16,062 nucleotides of DNA from a virus (taxonomy: Duplodnaviria; Heunggongvirae; Uroviricota; Caudoviricetes): positions 1-16,062 of IMG/VR virus record IMGVR_UViG_2698536355_000012. One strand, given 5' to 3'. The position numbers were made by a program, and so were the translations under genes. This document shows, in pieces, positions 7,267 through 16,062 of this stretch. Numbering within the stretch: position 1 is the first letter of the stretch; each line of letters opens with the position of its first letter. Under the pieces are notes generated by a model. That model did no database searches, was not told where the DNA came from, and saw only the letters and a program-made list of their open reading frames with translations.

Positions 7267-7296
7267 CAAAAAAATAGCCAAAGGTAACTTTGGCTA
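7267..7296 (-). terminator. Rho-independent terminator downstream of the repressor gene
   Basis: On the minus strand a 9 bp stem (7275-7283 pairs with 7288-7296, loop GTAA) is followed by a run of seven T (plus A7 at 7268-7274), 15 nt after the cI stop codon. Confidence 0.7.
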
Positions 7297-7310
7297 CATA
7301 TCTGGGGGGG

Positions 7311-7970
7311 TTAAATGTTCTGGGTTATTTGGACGACTTTGCCGACAATTCGGCAGTTTCCGTCAATTTGGATAGGCTTGAAAGCTGGGTTAAGTGGCAT
7401 GAGATAGGCGAATGGGCTATCCCACACTAATTTTTTTACAGTCGCTTCGGTAGAGCCTTCCAGTGTGGCAACGACTATTTTCCCGTAAAGATCATCAATT
7501 TGCCCGAAATGTGGTTCAACGATAACAATGGAACCTTCTGGAATTGATGGCAATCCATGAGGGTTAGTCATTGACTCTCCGCGGACCACTAACCCGAAAA
7601 CCTCTTCAGATACATTAGCTGTAGTTTGTGTCCATGCAATCACGTCTGTAAGCCTTGAACTGGCGTAGGTTTCTGTCCATAGACCAGCCTGAACGGCTGA
7701 TATAATAGGCACTGCTGTTGGCGGCTTAAGGAAGGGGACTAATTTGATATCATCAACGTCAGCATCTCCTTTGCCATAGAGAATCCATTCCGGGGTTACC
7801 TGAAGTACACCAGCAAGTTGGTGTAAATTCTCACCATCCGGCTTCGTTGTTCCATTCTCCCATTTCGTTACAGACACGCGACTGACCCCAAGCTTTTTGG
7901 CAAGGGTAAGCTGAGTCATATCGAGCTGGACTCGACGCGAACGAATACGGTCTTTCATCTCTGTTTTCAT
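7311..7970 (-). CDS. cI: CI-type repressor (P22 C2-like; HTH plus S24 LexA-like autopeptidase domain)
   Basis: 219 aa. N-terminal HTH (QLTLAKKLGVSRVSVTKWENG), C-terminal GESM (Ser) and VKKL (Lys) in S24 peptidase positions. Overall pattern closely parallels recalled P22 C2 (PIIS.V.AG.W, GDSM, PEG, ATVKKLV, NGNC.I.G.VV). Confidence 0.9.
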   Translation of the reverse strand: MKTEMKDRIRSRRVQLDMTQLTLAKKLGVSRVSVTKWENGTTKPDGENLHQLAGVLQVTPEWILYGKGDADVDDIKLVPFLKPPTAVPIISAVQAGLWTETYASSRLTDVIAWTQTTANVSEEVFGLVVRGESMTNPHGLPSIPEGSIVIVEPHFGQIDDLYGKIVVATLEGSTEATVKKLVWDSPFAYLMPLNPAFKPIQIDGNCRIVGKVVQITQNI

Positions 7971-8063
7971 GTAACCAATGTTACCTCTTTTGATGGTAAC
8001 TGTTGTTTGCTATTTAATGTACCTTTTGTTACCTTGTGGTGCGTAAGGTAACTAGGAGGAATC
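7971..8063. promoter_or_regulatory. Divergent immunity control region (OR with PR/PRM)
   Basis: 93 bp AT-rich intergenic between divergent cI and cro. Contains palindromic half-sites GTTACC (7980-7985) and GGTAAC (7995-8000), a third 18 bp operator repeat at 8018-8035, GGTAAC at 8047-8052, and the cro RBS AGGAGG at 8054-8059. Exact -10/-35 assignments not resolved. Confidence 0.6.
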
Positions 8064-8261
8064 ATGCGCAAATCTGAAGTCATAGAGCACTTCGGCGGAG
8101 TAGCCAAAACTGCTAATGCATTAGGTATTTCCCATCCAGCAGTTTGTCGATGGGGGGAGATCATCCCCGAGAAGCAAGCTTTTGTGATTGAGCGGATCAC
8201 GAAAGGAAAGCTCAAGTACAGCTCCGTTCTTTATCAAAAGTCTAATCAGACAGTCGCGTAA
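8064..8261 (+). CDS. cro: Cro-like repressor (P22 Cro family)
   Basis: 65 aa; VIEHFGG...ALGIS..AV..W.EIIPEK....I...T.G.LKY mirrors recalled P22 Cro (VIDHFGT...ALGISDAAVSQWKEVIPEKDAYRLEIVTAGALKY). Strong RBS AGGAGG upstream of ATG 8064. Confidence 0.85.
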   Translation: MRKSEVIEHFGGVAKTANALGISHPAVCRWGEIIPEKQAFVIERITKGKLKYSSVLYQKSNQTVA

Positions 8262-8289
8262 CGAATACCACAGAAACAAGGGGACAACC

Positions 8290-8856
8290 GTGGATAAACA
8301 ACACTGGAAAGTCGAACGACAGCCCGCCTGGCTGGTGGCTGCCATTAAACGGACTATCGCCGAAATGCCTGGTGGATATGCCGAAGCTGCTGAATGGCTT
8401 GGCCTGTATCGCGCCGGAAAAGTGTCAACCGATGCGCTCTATAACCGGCTGCGCAGCGAAGGCGATCAGATTTTCCCGCTTGAGTGGGCGATGGTGCTCC
8501 AGGATGCCAGCGGCACTAAGTACGTCACCGATGCGATAGCCCGCCGTAGCGGTGGTGTGTTTGTGCCGCTGGTGGACATTGATGACGTCGATAACGGTGA
8601 CATCAACCAGCGCCTGATGGAGTCAATCGAATGGATCGGCAGACACTCACAGTACCTGCGCAAAGCGACCGCTGACGGCGTTATTGACCCGGCAGAACGT
8701 GAGCAAATCGAAGAGAACAGTTACCAGGTGATGGCGAAGTGGCAGGAGCATCTGACGCTGCTGTTTCGTGTGTTTTGTGCGCCGGAAAAAAGTGACGCCC
8801 GCGAGTGTGCAGCTCCGGGCGCCTTGGCGAACAACTCTTCGTGTATGGAGAAATAA
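8290..8856 (+). CDS. CII/YdaT-like early regulatory protein (family assignment tentative)
   Basis: 188 aa from GTG 8290, with AAGGGG 6 nt upstream; the listed ORF start 8188 overlaps cro and is treated as an extension. Position immediately after cro is the cII position; sequence recalled as resembling CP76/YdaT-type proteins but not verified. Confidence 0.45.
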   Translation: MDKQHWKVERQPAWLVAAIKRTIAEMPGGYAEAAEWLGLYRAGKVSTDALYNRLRSEGDQIFPLEWAMVLQDASGTKYVTDAIARRSGGVFVPLVDIDDVDNGDINQRLMESIEWIGRHSQYLRKATADGVIDPAEREQIEENSYQVMAKWQEHLTLLFRVFCAPEKSDARECAAPGALANNSSCMEK

Positions 8857-9028
8857 TCCGCATGACCAGTTTAACGGCTTTTAACCGTTTACCGCAACTG
8901 AGGATGATCCCGGTGCAGGGAACTCCGCTGTTTCGGTATGAACGCAGAATATCAAACCGCTGGGTGCCATGTAACCACAGTCGGGCGGCCGCAATTGTGG
9001 GTGTTTACTACAGGAAGGCGAAACGCTT

Positions 9029-9214
9029 ATGCGCGAAGTTAACCGAAGGTTCAAAGACCACTACGGCGTGCCCGTCCGTGTTATCCGCTGGGAGCCAGAA
9101 ACGCGCCGCGTTATCTACCTGCGGGAAGGGTATCCGCATGAATGCTTCAGCCCGCTTGAGCAGTTTCAGCGCAAGTTCAGGGAGATAAAGAACGACCATG
9201 AGCCAGATATTTGA
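9029..9214 (+). CDS. Hypothetical small basic protein
   Basis: 61 aa ORF with AGGAAGG about 10 nt upstream of ATG 9029; balanced, charged composition. Overlaps the replication gene start by 17 nt. The alternative ORF 8805/8862..9188 in another frame looks less protein-like. Confidence 0.35.
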   Translation: MREVNRRFKDHYGVPVRVIRWEPETRRVIYLREGYPHECFSPLEQFQRKFREIKNDHEPDI

Positions 9215-10133
9215 AATCGTTCAATCACTGTCGGGGCAAAGGAACTGCATCACTATTCCGGTTCCGTACCTTGATTTTTTCTCGGGTGACCAACAGGCGC
9301 ATGCTTTGGGCGCAGTCCTAAACCAGCTTGTGTTCTGGTCTGGAAAATCAGACCTGAATGATGGTTGGTTTTACAAAGAGCACAGCGAGCTGGCGGAGGA
9401 GATTCACGGTGTAAGCGAAGACCAGGTACAGCGCCTGGTAAACAAGATTTGTACCCGCTGGCTACCTGATGTAGTTCAGAAAACACAGCGGCAGGTTAAC
9501 GGCACTAAAAAGACGCATTACCGTATCGATGGTGAAGCGCTAATCAACGTTTTATTCCCGCCAACACTGGTTCCCGCAGAATCGCGGAATGGGAAACGCG
9601 AAGTCGCGGAACATGTTCCGCAGAATCACGGAACAGAAAACGCAGACCCGCGGAACCCTAACCGTGAAGTCGCGGAACCTATTCTTTATACAGATCATTA
9701 CTCAGATCACCACAAACAGATCAGTAAACCTTCTTGTCCGGTTGCTGCGCAACCCGACCCGGAAGTGGTGATTACTGACCATGCGATTGAAGTTTTGCTC
9801 CATCTGAACCAGGTCAGCGGATCGCGCTACCAGAAATCAAGGACCTCGCTGGAAAACATCCGCGCCCGTCTGCGGGAAGGTTACAGCGTCAATGACCTGA
9901 AGCTGGTTATTGACCTGAAGCACGAGCACTGGAACGGCAACGATGAGCAGTACCAGTACATGCGTCCTGAAACCCTGTTTGGGCCGAAAAAGTTCGAAGG
10001 GTACCTGTCCAGCGCTACCCGCTGGGATAGCAAAGGCCGCCCGGAGCGCCAGTACTGGGATGCAGCTCGTAAGCATGATCCTGTGAAGTTCGGGCCAGTT
10101 GATACCAAGATTCCTGAGGGGTTCAGGGGATGA
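9198..10133 (+). CDS. Phage replication initiator (O-like replisome organiser with conserved phage C-terminal domain)
   Basis: 311 aa. The C-terminal YMRPETLFGPKKFEGY segment matches a recalled conserved phage replication-protein C-terminus. An iteron array lies inside the coding sequence, as with lambda O. Length and position are consistent with the intact form of KplE1 yfdO. Confidence 0.7.
   Translation: MSQIFEIVQSLSGQRNCITIPVPYLDFFSGDQQAHALGAVLNQLVFWSGKSDLNDGWFYKEHSELAEEIHGVSEDQVQRLVNKICTRWLPDVVQKTQRQVNGTKKTHYRIDGEALINVLFPPTLVPAESRNGKREVAEHVPQNHGTENADPRNPNREVAEPILYTDHYSDHHKQISKPSCPVAAQPDPEVVITDHAIEVLLHLNQVSGSRYQKSRTSLENIRARLREGYSVNDLKLVIDLKHEHWNGNDEQYQYMRPETLFGPKKFEGYLSSATRWDSKGRPERQYWDAARKHDPVKFGPVDTKIPEGFRG
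9562..9734. repeat. Candidate replication origin: iteron array with 22 bp periodicity, a 16 bp palindrome and a GATC cluster
   Basis: Five units beginning (G/A)CGGAA(C/T) at 9584, 9606, 9628, 9650 and 9672, exactly 22 bp apart, with a partial unit at 9562-9583. Perfect palindrome GCGGAACATGTTCCGC at 9606-9621. Three CAGATCA repeats at 9691-9697, 9703-9709 and 9717-9723 in a more AT-rich stretch. Confidence 0.65.
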
Positions 10134-11029
10134 ATGAAAATAAATACTGCCAGGCGCTGGCGGAAATGCGCAGCAGGAACGCGCACAAGCTGAAAGAAGT
10201 TGGCGATCAGTGGCGCACGCCGGAGCTGCTGTTCTGGGGGATTAATGCGATGTTTGGCCCGCTGGTGCTGGACCTCTTTGCCGACGACAGCAACGCTAAA
10301 TGCCCTGCCTGGTATACCGCAGAAGACAACGCGCTGACGCAGGACTGGTCTGAGCGCCTGGCGGAACTCGGCGGCGCCGCGTTTGCTAACCCGCCATACA
10401 GCCGATCGCAGTACCACGAAAAGCAGGCAATCACCGGGATGACCCACATCATTAACCACACGATGGCCATGCGAGAGAAGGGCGGTCGCTATGTGTTTCT
10501 GGTCAAAGCCGCACCAAGCGAAACATGGTGGCCGGAAGATGCAGACCACATTGTTTTCATCCGCGGTCGCATCGGTTTTGACCTTCCGGAATGGTTTGTA
10601 CCGACAGACGACAAGCAGCAGCCCACCAGCGCATTTTTTGCGGGCGCCATCGCGGTGTTTGACAAGACCTGGCGCGGCGAGCGCTTCAGCTATATCCACC
10701 GCACAGAGCTGGAGGCTAAGGGGCGGGCTTTCATGGTGCTGGCCGAATTTGCCGCGGGCAAGGTTCAGCCACCAGCAACACCGGCGCCAGCGCAGGTTGA
10801 CCCGGTTGTAGCGCCAGCAGCATTACCTGATGTTGATTCGCGCATCTGGCCGCTTGAGGTTGGGCTGGTGTTCAACCAGGTTGAGGGCGCGGATTCTCTG
10901 GATGCATCGCAGCAGAACAAGCTGAAAGCGAACATTAACCAGCTGTGGCTTGAGCGTATGCCAACCAGCGAAATCATAACGGTTGCTGGTGGACTGGTCA
11001 GCAGCATGCAGGGGGTGACCAGTGCGTGA
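10130..11029 (+). CDS. Phage Dam-type N6-adenine DNA methyltransferase with C-terminal extension
   Basis: 299 aa. N-terminal DQWRTPELLF and the catalytic-type NPPY motif (FANPPYSRS) are characteristic of phage Dam-family MTases. ATG 10130 overlaps the replication gene stop (ATGA). About 110 C-terminal residues (Pro/Ala-rich linker plus extra segment) exceed the usual family length. Confidence 0.8.
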   Translation: MNENKYCQALAEMRSRNAHKLKEVGDQWRTPELLFWGINAMFGPLVLDLFADDSNAKCPAWYTAEDNALTQDWSERLAELGGAAFANPPYSRSQYHEKQAITGMTHIINHTMAMREKGGRYVFLVKAAPSETWWPEDADHIVFIRGRIGFDLPEWFVPTDDKQQPTSAFFAGAIAVFDKTWRGERFSYIHRTELEAKGRAFMVLAEFAAGKVQPPATPAPAQVDPVVAPAALPDVDSRIWPLEVGLVFNQVEGADSLDASQQNKLKANINQLWLERMPTSEIITVAGGLVSSMQGVTSA

Positions 11030-13019
11030 AATTATCGTTGATAACTTCGCCGGCGGCGGCGGTGCGTCTACCGGGATCGAACTCGCTATAGGGCGCAGCG
11101 TGGATATTGCCATCAACCACGATGAAAACGCCATCGCCATGCACAAGACCAACCACCCCGACACGCTGCATTACTGCGAATCGGTGTTTGATGTGGATCC
11201 GGTTGCCGCCACTGGCGCGCATCCTGTTGGCCTGGCATGGTTCAGCCCCGACTGCCGCCATTTTTCAAAGGCGAAAGGCGCGAAGCCGGTGAAGAAGGAA
11301 ATCCGCGGGCTCGCGTGGGTAGTTATCCGCTGGGCGCTGGAGAAGCGACCGCGCGTGATGATGCTGGAGAACGTCGAAGAGTTTAAAACGTGGGGACCGT
11401 TGCTACGTGAAATGCCGTTCATTAGCCATGCGGAGCGTCACCTTAGCGACTTCATCGGGCCACCAGTACCAGTTGAACAGAACCCGGATCGTGCACGAGC
11501 TGGCGAGACGTTTGCAGCGTTTGTCGGCATGCTGTCGACGGGGATCCAGGCTGATCATCCGGCGCTGGCCGAGGTCTGCGAATTCCTCTCTATTGAACCT
11601 GGTAGCGGGCAGGCGCAACAGCTGGTTGCCGGGCTCGGCTATGACGTCGATTATCGCGAGCTGCGCGCGTGCGACTATGGCGCGCCGACAATCCGTCGCC
11701 GTTTCTTTATGGTCATGCGCTGCGATGGTAAAGCCATTCACTGGCCTGAACCGACCCACGGGGATCCGAAATCACTGGAGGTGCAGAGCGGCAGGCTGGC
11801 GCCGTGGCGCACCGCGGCGGAGTGTATCGACTGGAATATCCCGGCGCTGTCTATCTTCGATCGCAAAAAGCCCCTGGCAGAAAATACCCTGAAGCGTATT
11901 GCGCGCGGTATCCAGCGGTTTGTCATCGAGAGCGCCTCGCCGTTCATCGTGAAATGTAACCACACCACGACGAAAGGTAGCTATGACTGTTTTCGTGGTC
12001 AGGAGCTGGGCGCACCGCTGCAGACCATCACCAAAACCCACGGCTACGCGATAGCGGTACCGCACCTGACTAAATTCCGCACCGGCGCAACCGGGCAGCC
12101 CGTTACCGAACCGGTTCCTACGGTGACCGCCGGCACATCGGCGCGCCCGGGCGGAAATGGTCATGCCCTCGGTGTTGTTGAGGCGGAGCTGACACCATTC
12201 CTGGCTGGCAACGGCGGCAGCGAATACCAGGCGAAGCCGCGCGCGCTGAATAAGCCTGCCCACACTATCCTGAAGCAATCCCGCGCCTGCCTGGTTACGC
12301 CAGTGATTGCCCGCCAGTTCGGCGCCAGTATCGGCCACCGGGCAGACGAACCTAGCGCAACGATTACTGCGGGCGGTGGCGGTAAATCGCAGCTGGTGAC
12401 ACCGACGCTGATCCAGATGGGCTACGGTGAGCGTCCGGGGCAGGAGCCGCGCGTCCTGCAACTTAATAACCCGCTGGGAACCGTTACCGCTGGTGGCAAT
12501 AAGTTTGCAACGGTGAGCGCATTCCTGGCGAAGCACTACGGCGGGAATTATACGGGCCCGGGCGTGGGTCTGGATGAGCCAGCCCACTCCGTGACGACGG
12601 TCGATCACCATGCTGTTGTTGCCTCTCATCTGGTCAAGCTGCGCGGAACATGCCGCGACGGGCAGCGCCTGGACGAACCTATGCCAACCATCACTGCCGG
12701 CGGCCAGCACGTAGGGGAGGTTCGGACATTCCTTGAAACCTACTGCGGGGAAAGCGAAGACGAATGGCTGGTGACGATCGAGGGTGTTAAGTACCAGATT
12801 GTTGATATCGGCATGCGTATGTTGCAGCCCCATGAGTTGTATAAGGCCCAGGGTTTCCCGGATGGCTACGTTATCGATCAGGACTACCGGGGCAACCGCT
12901 ACGCGAAGGATAAGCAGGTCGCGCGCTGCGGCAACGCCGTCCCGCCACCATTCGCCCGCGCGCTGGTGGAGGCAAACTTACCTGAGATGTGCGCGGATCC
13001 GCAACGGGAGGTGGCATGA
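11022..13019 (+). CDS. DNA cytosine-5 methyltransferase, unusually large with repeat-containing variable region
   Basis: 665 aa. Motif I FAGGGGASTG, motif IV PDCRHFSKAKG (catalytic Cys), motif VI ENVEEF, motif VIII-like PTIRRRFFMV, motif IX-like LQPHELYKAQGFPDGY, motif X CGNAVPPP. GTG 11022 overlaps the Dam stop. About 370 aa lie between motifs VIII and IX, with recurring P-x-T-[IV]-T-A-G-G units. Confidence 0.85.
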   Translation: MREIIVDNFAGGGGASTGIELAIGRSVDIAINHDENAIAMHKTNHPDTLHYCESVFDVDPVAATGAHPVGLAWFSPDCRHFSKAKGAKPVKKEIRGLAWVVIRWALEKRPRVMMLENVEEFKTWGPLLREMPFISHAERHLSDFIGPPVPVEQNPDRARAGETFAAFVGMLSTGIQADHPALAEVCEFLSIEPGSGQAQQLVAGLGYDVDYRELRACDYGAPTIRRRFFMVMRCDGKAIHWPEPTHGDPKSLEVQSGRLAPWRTAAECIDWNIPALSIFDRKKPLAENTLKRIARGIQRFVIESASPFIVKCNHTTTKGSYDCFRGQELGAPLQTITKTHGYAIAVPHLTKFRTGATGQPVTEPVPTVTAGTSARPGGNGHALGVVEAELTPFLAGNGGSEYQAKPRALNKPAHTILKQSRACLVTPVIARQFGASIGHRADEPSATITAGGGGKSQLVTPTLIQMGYGERPGQEPRVLQLNNPLGTVTAGGNKFATVSAFLAKHYGGNYTGPGVGLDEPAHSVTTVDHHAVVASHLVKLRGTCRDGQRLDEPMPTITAGGQHVGEVRTFLETYCGESEDEWLVTIEGVKYQIVDIGMRMLQPHELYKAQGFPDGYVIDQDYRGNRYAKDKQVARCGNAVPPPFARALVEANLPEMCADPQREVA

Positions 13020-13402
13020 AGCTGGTGCTGCCGTTTCCCCCGAGCGTTAACACATACTGGCGCGCCCCTAACAAGGGGCCGCTGGCTGGGCGCCATCTTA
13101 TCAGTGCCGACGGCCGCAAATACCAGAGCGCGGCCTGCGCGGCGATCATTGAGCAGTTGCGCAGGCTGCCGAAGCCATCAACAGCGCCTGCTGCAGTCGA
13201 AATCACCCTGTATCCGCCGGACGCGCGCCGCCGGGATCTGGACAACTACAACAAAGCGCTGTTTGACGCGCTGACGCATGCTGGCGTGTGGGAGGACGAC
13301 AGCCAGGTAAAACGCATGCTGGTGGAGTGGGGGCCAGTGGTGCCGAAAGGCAGGGTTGAGATAACGATCAGCCAATACGAACCGGCGGGTGCAGCCGCCT
13401 GA
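13016..13402 (+). CDS. rusA: RusA Holliday junction resolvase
   Basis: Start placed at ATG 13016, overlapping the C5-MTase stop (ATGA). LPFPPSVNTYWR ... RRRDLDNYNKALFDALTHAGVWEDDSQV ... GRVEITI closely parallels recalled E. coli RusA (LPWPPSNNRYYR ... [28 protein letters not shown] ... GRLELTI). Confidence 0.9.
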   Translation: MKLVLPFPPSVNTYWRAPNKGPLAGRHLISADGRKYQSAACAAIIEQLRRLPKPSTAPAAVEITLYPPDARRRDLDNYNKALFDALTHAGVWEDDSQVKRMLVEWGPVVPKGRVEITISQYEPAGAAA

Positions 13403-13416
13403 TATGGAGAAATAGC

Positions 13417-13713
13417 ATGAGCAAACTTAGAGGATTGGTGTGTAGGCCTGATTTTTTGACTATTAGCAGTAATGAGATTGCCAAGGAATTTGGTAAACGA
13501 CATGACAATGTACTTCAGGATATCAGAAGAATTCTTCGCTCCCTGAATCTTCCAGAGGACCACCTTGCAGGGGAATACGCGGATGAAAGAGGAAGGCTCT
13601 ACCCATGTTTCAGGCTTGATAAGAGACTTGCATTGGTGTTGCTTACCTCGTACGACAACGTCTCACGTCTTAAGGTAATTGAATATTTTATTGAAAACGG
13701 AGGGCGCCTGTGA
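13417..13713 (+). CDS. Rha-family N-terminal domain protein (short paralog)
   Basis: 98 aa, GGAGA 6 nt upstream of ATG 13417. Clearly paralogous to the N-terminal ~90 aa of the next gene (EIA...KRHD.V..DIR..L..LN....F.G.Y.D.RGR.YP...L.K.L.L.L...Y...). Visibly more AT-rich than neighbouring genes. Confidence 0.7.
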   Translation: MSKLRGLVCRPDFLTISSNEIAKEFGKRHDNVLQDIRRILRSLNLPEDHLAGEYADERGRLYPCFRLDKRLALVLLTSYDNVSRLKVIEYFIENGGRL

Positions 13714-14411
13714 AAAGTCTAGTGAATGTTAAGAGTGATCCCGGCTTCCCTGCAATGTCCAGCCTGGAGATCGCCGGGTTGTGTGATAAGCGACACGACC
13801 ATGTAATGGCTGATATTCGCAATATGCTCGAACAGCTCAATATTCAATCTCCCGAGTTTTCGGGAGATTACCGGGACGACCGCGGGCGCTGTTATCCGCT
13901 TTACCACCTGCCAAAAGACTTATGCCTTACGCTGGTCTCCGGGTACAACGTGGTGCTGCGTAAACGCATTATCGATCGCTGGCTTGAGCTGGAGAACGGT
14001 CAGCAGGTCAGTGTGCCGCAGTCACTCCCGGAAGCGCTTCGCCTGGCGGCAGACCTCGCTGAGCAGAAAGAGCAACTGACCCAGCAGCTGGCCGCCGCGG
14101 CGCCAAAGGTCGAGTTTGTCGATCGCTACTGTACCGCGAAAGGGTCAATGTCGTTTCGCCAGGTGGCAAAGCTCCTGAACGCCAAAGAGACCGACTTCCG
14201 TCTGTTCCTCATCGACAGCGACATCATGTACCGCCTCGGGGGCGTACTGACCCCGCGGCACCAGCACATTAACGCCGGGCGGTTTGAGGTAAAAACCGGG
14301 ACCACCAGTGAATCGAACTATGCATTCAGCCAGGCGCGCTTTACCGCAAAAGGCGTTGAGTGGATCGGTGGCCTGTGGACGGCGCATATCGCTAAGGGGC
14401 ATGCCGCGTGA
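13710..14411 (+). CDS. Rha-family phage regulatory protein / antirepressor with C-terminal KilAC-like domain
   Basis: 233 aa; GTG 13710 overlaps the upstream stop, GGAGG 6 nt upstream. N-terminal Rha-like domain plus a C-terminal region typical of antirepressor (AntA/AntB, KilAC) proteins; domain names from recall. Confidence 0.7.
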   Translation: MKSLVNVKSDPGFPAMSSLEIAGLCDKRHDHVMADIRNMLEQLNIQSPEFSGDYRDDRGRCYPLYHLPKDLCLTLVSGYNVVLRKRIIDRWLELENGQQVSVPQSLPEALRLAADLAEQKEQLTQQLAAAAPKVEFVDRYCTAKGSMSFRQVAKLLNAKETDFRLFLIDSDIMYRLGGVLTPRHQHINAGRFEVKTGTTSESNYAFSQARFTAKGVEWIGGLWTAHIAKGHAA

Positions 14412-15469
14412 GAGCACTGCTGACAGCCGAAACGGTACCGCGCCTCGGCCTGGTGCTGCTGAAGCCGGGTAAAGACCTGATGCGCCTGTTCAGTGGCGGC
14501 CGTGTGCTGGTGGAGTCCGAGCCCAGGAGTATGGCCGCGCTTCCGTCAGGCCGTGTTCCCGATGCCCGGCAGCCGCTGGCTGATGATCCGCTTCTTATTT
14601 CCTTCTTCACCGACGAGCGGGTCATACGCGCCGCCGGCGGATTGCCCGGGCTCGAGTCCTGGCTGCTGCACCGTGTGCGTCAGTGCCAGTATCAGCACTC
14701 CGGCTACCACCATAAGGAGCTGGTCACAATGCGCCACCCGCCCGGGGCGATGGTGCTGTGCTGGCATTGCGATAACGAGCTACGCCAGCAAACGACAGAG
14801 CAGCTGGCGGAGCTGGCGCGCCGTAACGTTGTCGCCTGGGTGATCGATACCGTTCTGGCAGCGCTGGGTTTCAATAATGAGCGGGAATTGTCGCTGGGTG
14901 AGCTGTGCTGGTGGGCGGTCTGTGCAGGTATCGCCGGTGCAATCCCTGAAACGATGGCCCGCCGCGCGCTGCAGATGCCTGATGAGCCGTTTCTGCCGTT
15001 TTACCGGGAAAGCGATATTGTGCCAATGCCGCCGGCCACCAGCATCCTGCAGGAGAAGGCTGCAACCGCAGGAGCAGTAAAACAGCGCAGGAGCAGCACA
15101 AACCCGCAGGAGGTGCAGAAGCAGCCCGCAGTGCTGGCGCTGAGGATCGATCCGGAATCGCCGGAATCATTCATGCTGCGACCGAAGCGCCGCCGCTGGG
15201 TAAACGAGAAATACACCCGCTGGGTAAAGGTTCAGCCCTGTGAAGGTTGCCGCCGTCCGGCAGACGACCCGCACCATATCATCGGGCATGGTATGGGCGG
15301 TACAGCCACAAAAGCCCACGACCTCTTCGTGATCCCTCTGTGCAGAGAGTGCCACGACGAGTTGCACGCCGATGTAGCGGCATTCGAGAAGAAGCACGGC
15401 ACGCAGCTGGAGCTGCTGTTTCGTGTTCTGGATCGGGCGCTGGCGATCGGCGTAATTGTAAAAGCTTAA
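14408..15469 (+). CDS. NinG/DUF968-like protein with C-terminal HNH-like Cys/His motif
   Basis: 353 aa; GTG 14408 overlaps the upstream stop. C-terminus CEGCRRPADDPHHIIGHGMGG...CRECHDELH resembles the zinc/HNH-like motif of DUF968-type phage proteins usually found between rusA/nin genes and Q. Confidence 0.55.
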   Translation: MRALLTAETVPRLGLVLLKPGKDLMRLFSGGRVLVESEPRSMAALPSGRVPDARQPLADDPLLISFFTDERVIRAAGGLPGLESWLLHRVRQCQYQHSGYHHKELVTMRHPPGAMVLCWHCDNELRQQTTEQLAELARRNVVAWVIDTVLAALGFNNERELSLGELCWWAVCAGIAGAIPETMARRALQMPDEPFLPFYRESDIVPMPPATSILQEKAATAGAVKQRRSSTNPQEVQKQPAVLALRIDPESPESFMLRPKRRRWVNEKYTRWVKVQPCEGCRRPADDPHHIIGHGMGGTATKAHDLFVIPLCRECHDELHADVAAFEKKHGTQLELLFRVLDRALAIGVIVKA

Positions 15470-15483
15470 GTATGGAGAGCAGA

Positions 15484-16062
15484 ATGATCAATCCTTCAGT
15501 AGTTGGTAAAAGCGATGAAATGGTGCGCTTACGTACACTTGAGAGCGTCTGGATTCAAGGGAAATTGAGAATGTGGGGATGCTGGTCCTGCATTGGTAGC
15601 GGTTCTGGAGGCAACATGTTTAACCAGTTGTTGGCATCAGGAAAAGTTACCAAAACAGCTATTAACGATGCTATTCGCCGTATGAAAAAATCTGGTATTA
15701 CCAAACCTGAGTTGGAAGCGTTTTTCCTCGAAATTCTCAGGGGAAAGAAAAAAAGCAATCTTGCGTTCTGCACGGATGAGGAAGGACTGGCGACTGACGC
15801 CGTCCTCAGTGAAGTGCTGGTGCGTCCTGGGCACAAGCGTTTGTACCATGTAATTAGTGATCGCTATCGTTATCGAATGAGTAAGAAGGAAATGGCTCGA
15901 CAATTAAACGAGCGACATCCTGAATGGTGCTTGCGAACATGTGAAAGCAGAATTGATGTCTGGTTAAATATGGCGGAATCGATGCTATATCAACCAATGT
16001 GTGATGCTTTCGACACAAATGGCGACAGATTTTCATTGACGGATTGCGCAGAAACTGCTTAA
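15484..16062 (+). CDS. Putative late-gene antiterminator Q-like protein
   Basis: 192 aa from ATG 15484 (GGAGAG upstream); the listed ORF start 15247 overlaps the previous gene and is treated as an extension. Last gene of the early-right operon, basic with a Cys cluster (WGCWSC). Assignment is by position and general character, not verified similarity. Confidence 0.45.
   Translation: MINPSVVGKSDEMVRLRTLESVWIQGKLRMWGCWSCIGSGSGGNMFNQLLASGKVTKTAINDAIRRMKKSGITKPELEAFFLEILRGKKKSNLAFCTDEEGLATDAVLSEVLVRPGHKRLYHVISDRYRYRMSKKEMARQLNERHPEWCLRTCESRIDVWLNMAESMLYQPMCDAFDTNGDRFSLTDCAETA

Follow-up and report, generated by a model that had tools for sequence, protein, structure and literature searches.

The viral DNA analyzed here, positions 1 to 16,062 of IMG/VR record IMGVR_UViG_2698536355_000012 (Caudoviricetes; this whole 16,062-nt stretch is called the window below), very probably holds a prophage origin of vegetative, theta-type replication of the lambda kind. 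The candidate origin occupies 9572-9758 and lies inside an O-like initiator gene (9198..10133), in the part that encodes a linker of the initiator itself, predicted to be disordered. A lambda-like origin within the replication gene had been proposed in the initial annotation, and comparison with relatives bears this out: the element is confined to the linker, is constrained at the DNA level, co-varies with the N-terminal domain of the initiator, is swapped together with that domain, and in some relatives is fused to the palindrome of the lambda origin. Because of the DNA-level constraint, the co-variation of iterons and N-domain, and the modular inheritance, we consider the lambda-like reading well supported. 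An in-gene iteron origin is of a known kind; what is new are three selected GATC sites in the opening element beside a coupled Dam gene, and a widely conserved 12-bp repeat. The gene and the candidate origin are composed as follows.

9198..10133, + strand: replication initiator, O-like / DnaD-like "replisome organiser" type, 311 aa (from the open reading frame (ORF), Pfam, and PHROG)
9198..9560, + strand: N-terminal domain, aa 1 to about 121, putatively origin-binding, predicted winged helix
9572..9589: iteron 1, TCCCGC-AGAATC-GCGGAA, in 22-bp register
9594..9611: iteron 2, AAACGC-GAAGTC-GCGGAA
9616..9633: iteron 3, TTCCGC-AGAATC-ACGGAA, the best dyad of the five
9638..9655: iteron 4, AAACGC-AGACCC-GCGGAA
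9660..9677: iteron 5, AACCGT-GAAGTC-GCGGAA
9679..9730: putative DNA-unwinding element, three 12-14-bp repeats with core CAGATCA (from AT content, stability, and conservation)
9736..9758: palindrome GTCCGGTTGC-TGC-GCAACCCGAC, 23 bp, inverted repeat I5, which opens the exchangeable C-terminal module
9759..10130, + strand: C-terminal helical domain Phg_2220_C, presumed to recruit a helicase or loader

In a motif scan of the window, [GA]CGGAA[CT] starts at 9584, 9606, 9628, 9650, and 9672, that is, in exact 22-bp steps. These five account for 5 of the 12 matches on the + strand of the 16 kb; the other seven lie elsewhere. Tandem Repeats Finder reported a period-22 array at 9575-9656, one of just three arrays in the window, and a repeat search located copies of a 44-nt super-repeat at 9575, 9619, and 9641. 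The self-identity at period 22, taken over 88 nt, was 0.614, versus 0.469 +/- 0.015 (maximum 0.523) in dinucleotide shuffles (n=200); with a z of about 9.6, this is the top periodicity signal of the window. The regularity is far beyond chance, and the five units at strict 22-bp spacing that had been noted initially are confirmed by the scan, by Tandem Repeats Finder, and by the shuffles. The window covers only 16 kb of the phage; within it, no second comparable periodic array occurs.

The array is built from copies of an 18-bp imperfect dyad, (T/A)(T/A)(C/A)CGC-N6-GCGGAA with the core CCGC-N6-GCGGAA, plus a 4-bp spacer. One unit had initially been described as forming a perfect palindrome. The palindrome GCGGAACATGTTCCGC is indeed present at 9606-9621; however, it is better read as the junction where iteron 2 ends in its right arm and iteron 3 begins with its left. 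The array has a strong single-strand fold (z=-5.4), which is accounted for by the dyad iterons. A structured RNA was also considered and set aside, with zero Rfam matches at the gathering threshold over the whole window.

The array and the GATC-containing box that follows it encode aa 126-178, the linker between the N-domain and Phg_2220_C, and in the AlphaFold model aa 124-178 are predicted to be disordered (predicted local distance difference test, pLDDT, <50) and lack secondary structure. One could take the repeats for a low-complexity protein linker (REVAE..REVAE) that has no function at the DNA level: the region is translated, the linker is predicted to be disordered, and REVAEH and REVAEP, described in the initial annotation as a translated repetitive linker, are what iterons 2 and 5 encode, the two being in one frame because 66 bp separate them. 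But 22 bp is not a multiple of three, so successive units are read in all three frames and the array is not a peptide repeat. We compared codons among 35 distinct relatives with at least 75% identity, scoring the fraction of identical-residue pairs that have differing codons. This synonymous difference was 0.42 in the N-domain versus 0.04-0.14 across nt 9558-9707, with a mean of 0.07 for aa 126-176; synonymous sites in the linker are thus about 6-fold more conserved than in the N-domain, whereas amino-acid divergence is not reduced (0.13 in the linker versus 0.09 in the N-domain).

Within the GATC box, synonymous change is about 0.04. GAT is the sole codon for Asp in the box, and the following codon always begins with C, though it encodes H, Q, L, or P. 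The box Ile is ATC in all but three distinct boxes, and CA-GA is invariant although the first residue may be S, T, A, or P. Since the GATCs survive amino-acid replacements, selection acts on the DNA. Together with the symmetric variation of the iteron half-sites given below, these observations make a linker without DNA-level function extremely unlikely as an explanation of the repeats.

The initial annotation had also noted an AT-rich stretch with three CAGATCA repeats after the iterons, and this is what we find. CAGATCA occurs at 9691-9697, 9703-9709, and 9717-9723, which places the GATCs at 9693, 9705, and 9719, spaced 12 and 14 bp, or about one helical turn, inside the predicted unwinding segment. 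The AT-richest 50 nt of the initiator gene are 9679-9728 (68% AT; 99.5th percentile of the window). When the gene was scanned in 99 distinct relatives for its least stable 40-bp segment, this segment lay at -20..+9 nt from the TATACAGA anchor in 92 of them. No sigma-70-like site that could serve as an internal promoter was found in 7900-10300. We also rejected a packaging site like P1 pac, which has TGATCA elements; the motif here is AGATCA, lies inside the replication gene, and moves with the initiator N-domain.

For the comparisons with relatives, 50 genome loci and 80 viral contigs (about 130 loci) were fetched. The period-22 array is found at a constant gene offset in Enterobacter, Citrobacter, Serratia, Sodalis, Ewingella, Proteus, Morganella, Enterovibrio, and others (Enterobacterales and Vibrionales). 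The GATC trio is at gene offsets +496, +508, and +522 in most Enterobacterales relatives, and similar triplets are present in Photobacterium, Enterovibrio, and Algicola. Both iteron half-sites vary symmetrically, and their variation tracks the lineage of the N-domain:

TTCCGC..GCGGAA: window lineage
TTCGGC..GCCGAA: Ewingella/Serratia
AACGGC..GCCGTT: Buttiauxella
TTGGGCG..CGCCCAA: Enterovibrio
TGGCGGA..TCCGCCA: Halomonas

Judged from these sequences, symmetric half-site change is what would be expected of a dimeric protein that co-evolves with its site.

The origin is inherited as part of a module. The N-module with its iterons and box (aa 1 to about 175), about 90% identical, is also fused to a quite different, lambda-O-like C-terminus; overall it is found with Phg_2220_C, lambda-O-type, or other C-termini. 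From KPSCPVAAQPDPEV (the palindrome) onward, the C-terminus is 100% identical behind an unrelated N-domain, and the palindrome at 9736-9758 also stands behind different N-modules in loci L002 and L053. The mosaic breakpoints of the initiator genes coincide with this palindrome. Where the N-domain is different, so are the iterons, which are spaced 15 bp in L002, 23 bp in L017, and 21-24 bp in phage ST64B. The number of iterons varies in steps of 66 bp, i.e., three units, the sole step that keeps the frame (L073, L018, L029, and L032 compared with the window), and close relatives with 288-aa proteins (P0018, P0019) have natural two-iteron versions. Origins of this kind can be found by sequence alone, by looking for dyads repeated every 22 bp and a repeat box in the linker of an initiator.

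Sequenced DNA close to that of the window is scarce: near-identical DNA was not found among sequenced phages, and complete E. coli genomes gave just 5 matches at about 83%. One of the relatives, L003 (DAINBV010000046.1, 44.5 kb), is binned as "Geobacteraceae bacterium"; its module has 89% protein identity, and its sequence is typical of Enterobacter prophages. This is probably a mis-binned contig.

The annotated origin of lambda consists of four 18-bp dyad iterons (ATCCCTCAAAACGAGGGA etc.) that start 20, 24, and 23 bp apart, then an AT-rich stretch, and then GTCAGAGAATTCTGGCGAATCCTCTGAC. The order and geometry in the window are the same: in the middle of the initiator gene, dyad iterons are followed by an AT-rich region and a palindrome, and the palindrome at 9736-9758 has the position of lambda GTCAGAGAATTCTGGCGAATCCTCTGAC. 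In phage PSTRCR_117lys and in prophages of Sodalis, Acerihabitans, Morganella, and Pluralibacter, the lambda palindrome itself stands directly after the GATC box and is followed by a lambda-O-type C-terminus; it also directly follows the box in L054, L009, L011, L022, and L032. Given this fusion at the lambda palindrome, the GATC box occupies the position of the AT-rich unwinding region of lambda.

The window shares with lambda, the Stx phages, P22, and phage L an iteron-binding N-domain (putative here), an exchangeable C-domain, and phage-specific iterons. The iterons of lambda and Stx phages bind O, which also binds single-stranded AT-rich DNA (PMC7466680), and the equivalent gene of P22 and of phage L has other iterons (PMC8022706). 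As cited in PMC7466680, Dodson et al. 1986 gave two iterons plus the AT-rich tract as the minimal unwinding unit; by analogy, the two-iteron variants among the close relatives would fit a minimal origin of this kind. The window differs from ori-lambda in its five iterons at a strict 22 bp, in an opening region made of three 12-14-bp GATC repeats and not an A-tract, in an N-domain that is not Phage_rep_O, and in having a Dam methylase, not a P-like loader, as the next gene.

The iterons might instead serve mainly in autoregulation, copy control, or incompatibility, through handcuffing or as a transcription roadblock, with the origin elsewhere. Iteron-binding Rep proteins of iteron plasmids commonly autoregulate, and rightward early transcription has to cross the array to reach Dam and later genes. 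However, the array is immediately followed by the conserved, least stable repeat box, the order of iterons, box, and palindrome is that of ori-lambda with lambda-type C-modules joined at the homologous point, and the array is the only one of its kind in the 16 kb of the phage that the window covers. We regard a mainly regulatory array as improbable and retain 9572-9758 as the candidate origin.

Other known origins resemble parts of this arrangement. Iteron plasmids have a winged-helix initiator, iterons at about 22 bp, and an unwinding element of short tandem repeats. In the theta plasmids RK2 (oriV), pPS10, F, R6K, and P1 (oriR), as in the window, a winged-helix initiator (predicted here) goes with ~22-bp iterons and an adjacent repeat unwinding element. 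Unlike these plasmids, the window has its origin inside the initiator coding sequence and lacks DnaA boxes, and the element would be a lytic phage origin, not one of a copy-controlled plasmid. The DnaA box TTWTNCACA has no match in the window, and a DnaA-dependent origin was ruled out on this ground. The 13-mers of E. coli oriC are likewise GATC-initial tandem repeats of ~13 bp in a melting segment, with spacings of 16, 15, and 13 bp versus 12 and 14 bp here. On the bottom strand the window repeats read GATCTG.., as in the M 13-mer of oriC GATCTGTTCTATT, with weak similarity beyond GATCTG; unlike oriC, the initiator is O-like and not DnaA. In Salmonella phage ST64B (L138, 1456-1604), sb42, a "putative replication protein", has in-gene (T/A)GTGCAGGAGATTCACTAGG repeats at 21-24 bp, then three GAACCAGTCA; this array has a window-like architecture with differing sequences and no GATC.

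The 311-aa initiator matches phrog_428 "replication initiation protein" (1e-52), and its N-terminal 121 aa match phrog_9773 "replication initiation O-like" (7.7e-29) as well as phrog_6493 "DnaD-like". An AlphaFold (AF2) model built from 46 homologues gives the N-domain helices and a beta-hairpin at aa 93-110; its Foldseek matches are to winged-helix proteins of the PadR/MarR/GntR type at a probability of ~0.99, with weak E-values and to generic regulators. The C-domain is Phg_2220_C by Pfam (PF09524, aa 199-270, 2e-23), has a pLDDT of about 90 for aa 188-280, and matches phrog_1701 "DnaD-like helicase loader" (3.6e-7). The initiator presumably works like O but stands outside its sequence family. 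Genes of this type are now annotated just as "conserved phage C-terminal domain protein", and the element supplies a candidate origin for widespread, unstudied enterobacterial prophages.

We infer binding, melting, and helicase recruitment by the following steps. Dimers of the winged-helix N-domain would bind the five iterons, which are phased by about two helical turns, and form a complex like the lambda "O-some". The resulting strain would open the adjacent, least stable segment at 9679-9730 with its three 12-14-bp repeats, and the Phg_2220_C domain would recruit the replicative helicase, presumably DnaB/DnaC of the host, given that the phage has neither a helicase nor a loader gene nearby.

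Several results weigh against this scheme and the origin it assumes. The N-domain has no Pfam match even at E<=10 and is not PF04492 Phage_rep_O; a search by sequence gave no useful relatives with a solved structure, and the confidence of the N-domain model is only moderate. Neither a helicase, a loader of the lambda P or P22 gp12 type, nor a primase gene accompanies the initiator, and none is present in the 6 kb downstream; the route of helicase loading is guesswork. The sequenced isolates that carry the N-module are only mEp390, Providencia phage PSTRCR_117lys, and one Klebsiella phage, none of which has a mapped origin.

The initial annotation had further suggested that firing of the origin is coupled to methylation by a phage Dam enzyme encoded two genes downstream. 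The position was misjudged: the PF05869 gene at 10130-11029 is the immediately next gene, and its ATG overlaps the TGA of the initiator (ATGA). The coupling itself is plausible, with comparative support that is circumstantial, and we hold it tentatively. GATC methylation, full before firing and hemimethylated after it, would probably modulate melting, SeqA sequestration, or both, as at the oriC 13-mers and P1 oriR, and the translationally coupled phage Dam may hasten remethylation so that the origin re-fires. The binding sites of SeqA are pairs of hemimethylated GATCs with about one turn between them (PMC2691817); by analogy, the spacing of 12 and 14 bp suits SeqA. According to Abeles and Austin 1987, as cited in PMC2865523, P1 oriR requires methylated GATCs.

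We clustered the N-modules at 90% identity and scored PF05869 within a few kb downstream. A PF05869 Dam gene was found in 19 of 25 GATC-type clusters, in most cases directly behind the initiator gene, versus none of the 4 GATC-free clusters. Each of the 25 GATC-type lineages retains at least two GATCs. Among the relatives, the GATC spelling was seen only in Enterobacterales, Vibrionales, and Algicola, and not in the Halomonas, Marinobacter, Legionellales, cyanobacterial, or Staphylococcus relatives. The Enterobacterales, Vibrionales, and Algicola orders have Dam/SeqA.

Other results count against the methylation step. Three GATCs within 26 bp arise somewhere in 13% of shuffles (p about 0.13), which is not significant in the window alone; the cluster gains its significance solely from its conservation in relatives. 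Some lineages hold only two GATCs, and single GATCs were lost in 8 lineages. One group of relatives (L053 (mEp390), L008, L077-L079, L092, and L096-L135) has repeats of the form CAGAC(T/G)T / CAGA(G/C)TT / CAGACT, in which Asp is always GAC, and the GATC-free clusters are probably a single clade. An 85%-identical Dam is encoded two genes after the initiator of ST64B, whose box of GAACCAGTCA x3 contains no GATC. The hosts have their own Dam. Three of the four GATC-free clusters carry an MT-A70 methylase (28 of 38 loci), and one phage MT-A70 enzyme is GATC-specific (PMC7556043). The notion that GATC boxes go with Dam and GATC-free boxes with an MT-A70 enzyme of different specificity was dropped because of that enzyme and ST64B.

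A real possibility, if short of probable, is that the origin functions as such while its GATCs are a tolerated spelling of the CAGA box or belong to some other Dam process, the Dam being an anti-restriction or epigenetic accessory. The ancestral and widespread box, ACAGAGAYTAC, is GATC-free, as is the enterobacterial sister clade with CAGAC/CAGAG, and the single losses in 8 lineages and the combination found in ST64B fit such tolerance. PF05869 Dam genes are widespread in unrelated phages, and the role of this type of phage Dam has been described as not well understood (PMC7556043). Against tolerance stands the retention, through amino-acid replacements, of GAT+C and ATC in about 25 lineages with at least two sites each. 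The GATC-free clade uses GAC even for the same D-L dipeptide, so that the difference is at the DNA level, and the confinement of the GATC spelling to Enterobacterales, Vibrionales, and Algicola among the relatives is a further point against tolerance. With selected GATCs and an overlapping Dam gene in one small locus, the purpose of phage-encoded Dam methylases (PMC7556043), an old question, becomes testable.

The box has counterparts far outside the Enterobacterales. Distant relatives chosen by N-domain protein similarity alone (Halomonas, Marinobacter, Marinospirillum, Methyloprofundus, a Legionellales metagenome-assembled genome, a cyanobacterium, and Staphylococcus phage phiMR11) carry iterons of their own, spaced 22-23 bp, and behind these a near-identical box, ATTACAGAGAYTAC-TACAGAGACTAC-nnCAGAGACTAC. 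The DnaD-like initiators of Firmicutes phages (Staphylococcus phage phiMR11 orf16, phages X2 and 37) have a homologous N-domain with 31-36% identity. In these Staphylococcus phage initiators, in-gene iterons at 23-bp spacing are followed by a GATC-free box of ACAGAGA repeats. The hosts of these phages are not known to have Dam, and, unlike in the window, a loader and a DnaB-type helicase of the phages themselves adjoin the initiator.

More generally, a tandem 12-bp repeat, (TACAGAGAYTAC)2-5, stands just after iterons phased at 22-24 bp in initiator genes (L037, L040, L043, L046, L048-L050, L136, and L139-L258). It is carried by phages and prophages from Firmicutes, Cyanobacteria, and many Proteobacteria, and the N- and C-modules that accompany it are of many kinds. 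The exact pattern ACAGAGAYTACNNCAGAGAYTAC occurs in at least 120 viral contigs, and about 9e-13 matches per position would be expected by chance (our own arithmetic). Among the matches listed, it lies in 110 distinct ORFs, about 140-200 residues in, with TE(I/T)T repeats in 109 of the 110, upstream arrays mostly of period 23 bp, and an ORF G+C of 0.29 to 0.65. A 53-nt box consensus retrieved 129 records among sequenced isolates. The matches listed for it are mostly to genes annotated as replication initiation O-like, DnaD-like, primosomal protein I, or replisome organiser, and the hosts and phages include Geobacillus, Synechococcus, Vibrio, Erwinia, Bacillus, Acinetobacter, Staphylococcus, Stx phages, Lactobacillus mv4, Burkholderia, and Pseudomonas.

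Threonine codons in the protein-selected loci are ACA/ACT rather than ACC/ACG in a ratio of 37:7 inside the box versus 56:76 outside (Fisher p=1.4e-6), and in L049 and L046 the box motif recurs in a shifted frame. From the codon bias and the shifted-frame recurrence, the box is conserved at the DNA level. The box of the window, TATACAGATCATTACTCAGATCACCACAAACAGATCA, is by sequence comparison a respelled version of the (TACAGAGAYTAC)n element. The full GATC spelling was found only with the N-module of the window, in 36 of 38 full boxes from IMG/VR and in one isolate, PSTRCR_117lys; a scan of IMG/VR with a 15-base GATC pattern had given 118 matches, mostly due to chance, of which 80 were without the third site, and only the 38 full boxes were used. 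The AT-rich region of lambda (CTATTACAAAAGA...) may be a degenerate copy of (TACAGAGAYTAC)n; by eye, lambda CACTATTACAAAAGAAAAAAGAAAAGATTATTCG looks like such a copy, which we offer as a lead only.

The box could alternatively be kept mainly as a recombination linker, a "boundary sequence" for the shuffling of N- and C-modules, and not as an unwinding element. The mosaic breakpoints lie right after it, and the same box and palindrome flank many N- and C-modules. But a 12-bp repeat that persists against codon bias in Firmicutes, Cyanobacteria, and Proteobacteria requires purifying selection and not mere usefulness in recombination. The box, moreover, adjoins the iterons on their downstream side in every case and is the segment of lowest stability. 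The two roles are also compatible. A box kept mainly for recombination is therefore very improbable in our view, and we continue to read it as a putative unwinding element.

We found no description of the repeat in the open-access literature searched, though older subscription papers could hold one. Somewhat doubtful, but worth stating, is the idea that the box of the window is the Dam-host version of an apparently undescribed cross-phyla element, a universal site for opening and helicase loading, perhaps read as single-stranded DNA; respelling to ACAGATC in a single initiator lineage of enterobacteria and vibrios would have brought it under Dam/SeqA control, and the coupled Dam would reset the origin so that it re-fires rapidly. 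If the cross-phylum box is new, it may be a common opening or loading element and a marker for origin prediction in metagenomic viruses.

The genes around the initiator form a lambdoid early-right operon, with the following features.

7311-7970, - strand: CI-like repressor
8064-8261, + strand: Cro
ending at 8856, + strand: CII/YmfL-like
8805-9188, + strand: unknown ORF
9029-9214, + strand: DUF4222 ORF, 61 aa
10130-11029, + strand: predicted phage Dam-type N6-adenine methyltransferase, 299 aa (Pfam PF05869, 1e-43)
11022-13019, + strand: C5-methylase, 665 aa
downstream of the C5-methylase, + strand: Rha/Ant and DUF968 genes (a Q antiterminator is annotated in relative L001)

The DUF4222 ORF overlaps the start of the initiator by 17 nt and has the same place upstream of different N-domains in L001 and L002. 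The Dam-type protein has an NPPY motif and 85% identity to ST64B Sb44. In the 665-aa ORF, Pfam recognizes three C-5 cytosine methylase stretches, the best of which is aa 6-122. L001 has a similar C5-methylase of 645 aa, and its Dam has 444 aa versus 299 aa in the window, which suggests that both methylases carry variable fusion domains. Relatives with a lambda-O-type C-terminus are also without a P-like gene (L001, L007, and L054 were compared), and methyltransferases directly follow their initiator.

Two consecutive ORFs, 13417-13713 (98 aa, Rha only) and 13710-14411 (233 aa, Rha plus KilAC/ANT), both start with Rha; the pair may have arisen by partial duplication or be an antirepressor gene that was split. 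The DUF968/HNH-like gene at 14408-15469 contains 2.5 copies of a 19-bp tandem repeat, CCGCAGGAGCAGCACAAAC, at 15066-15112, which is the second strongest periodicity of the window (period 19, identity 0.53).

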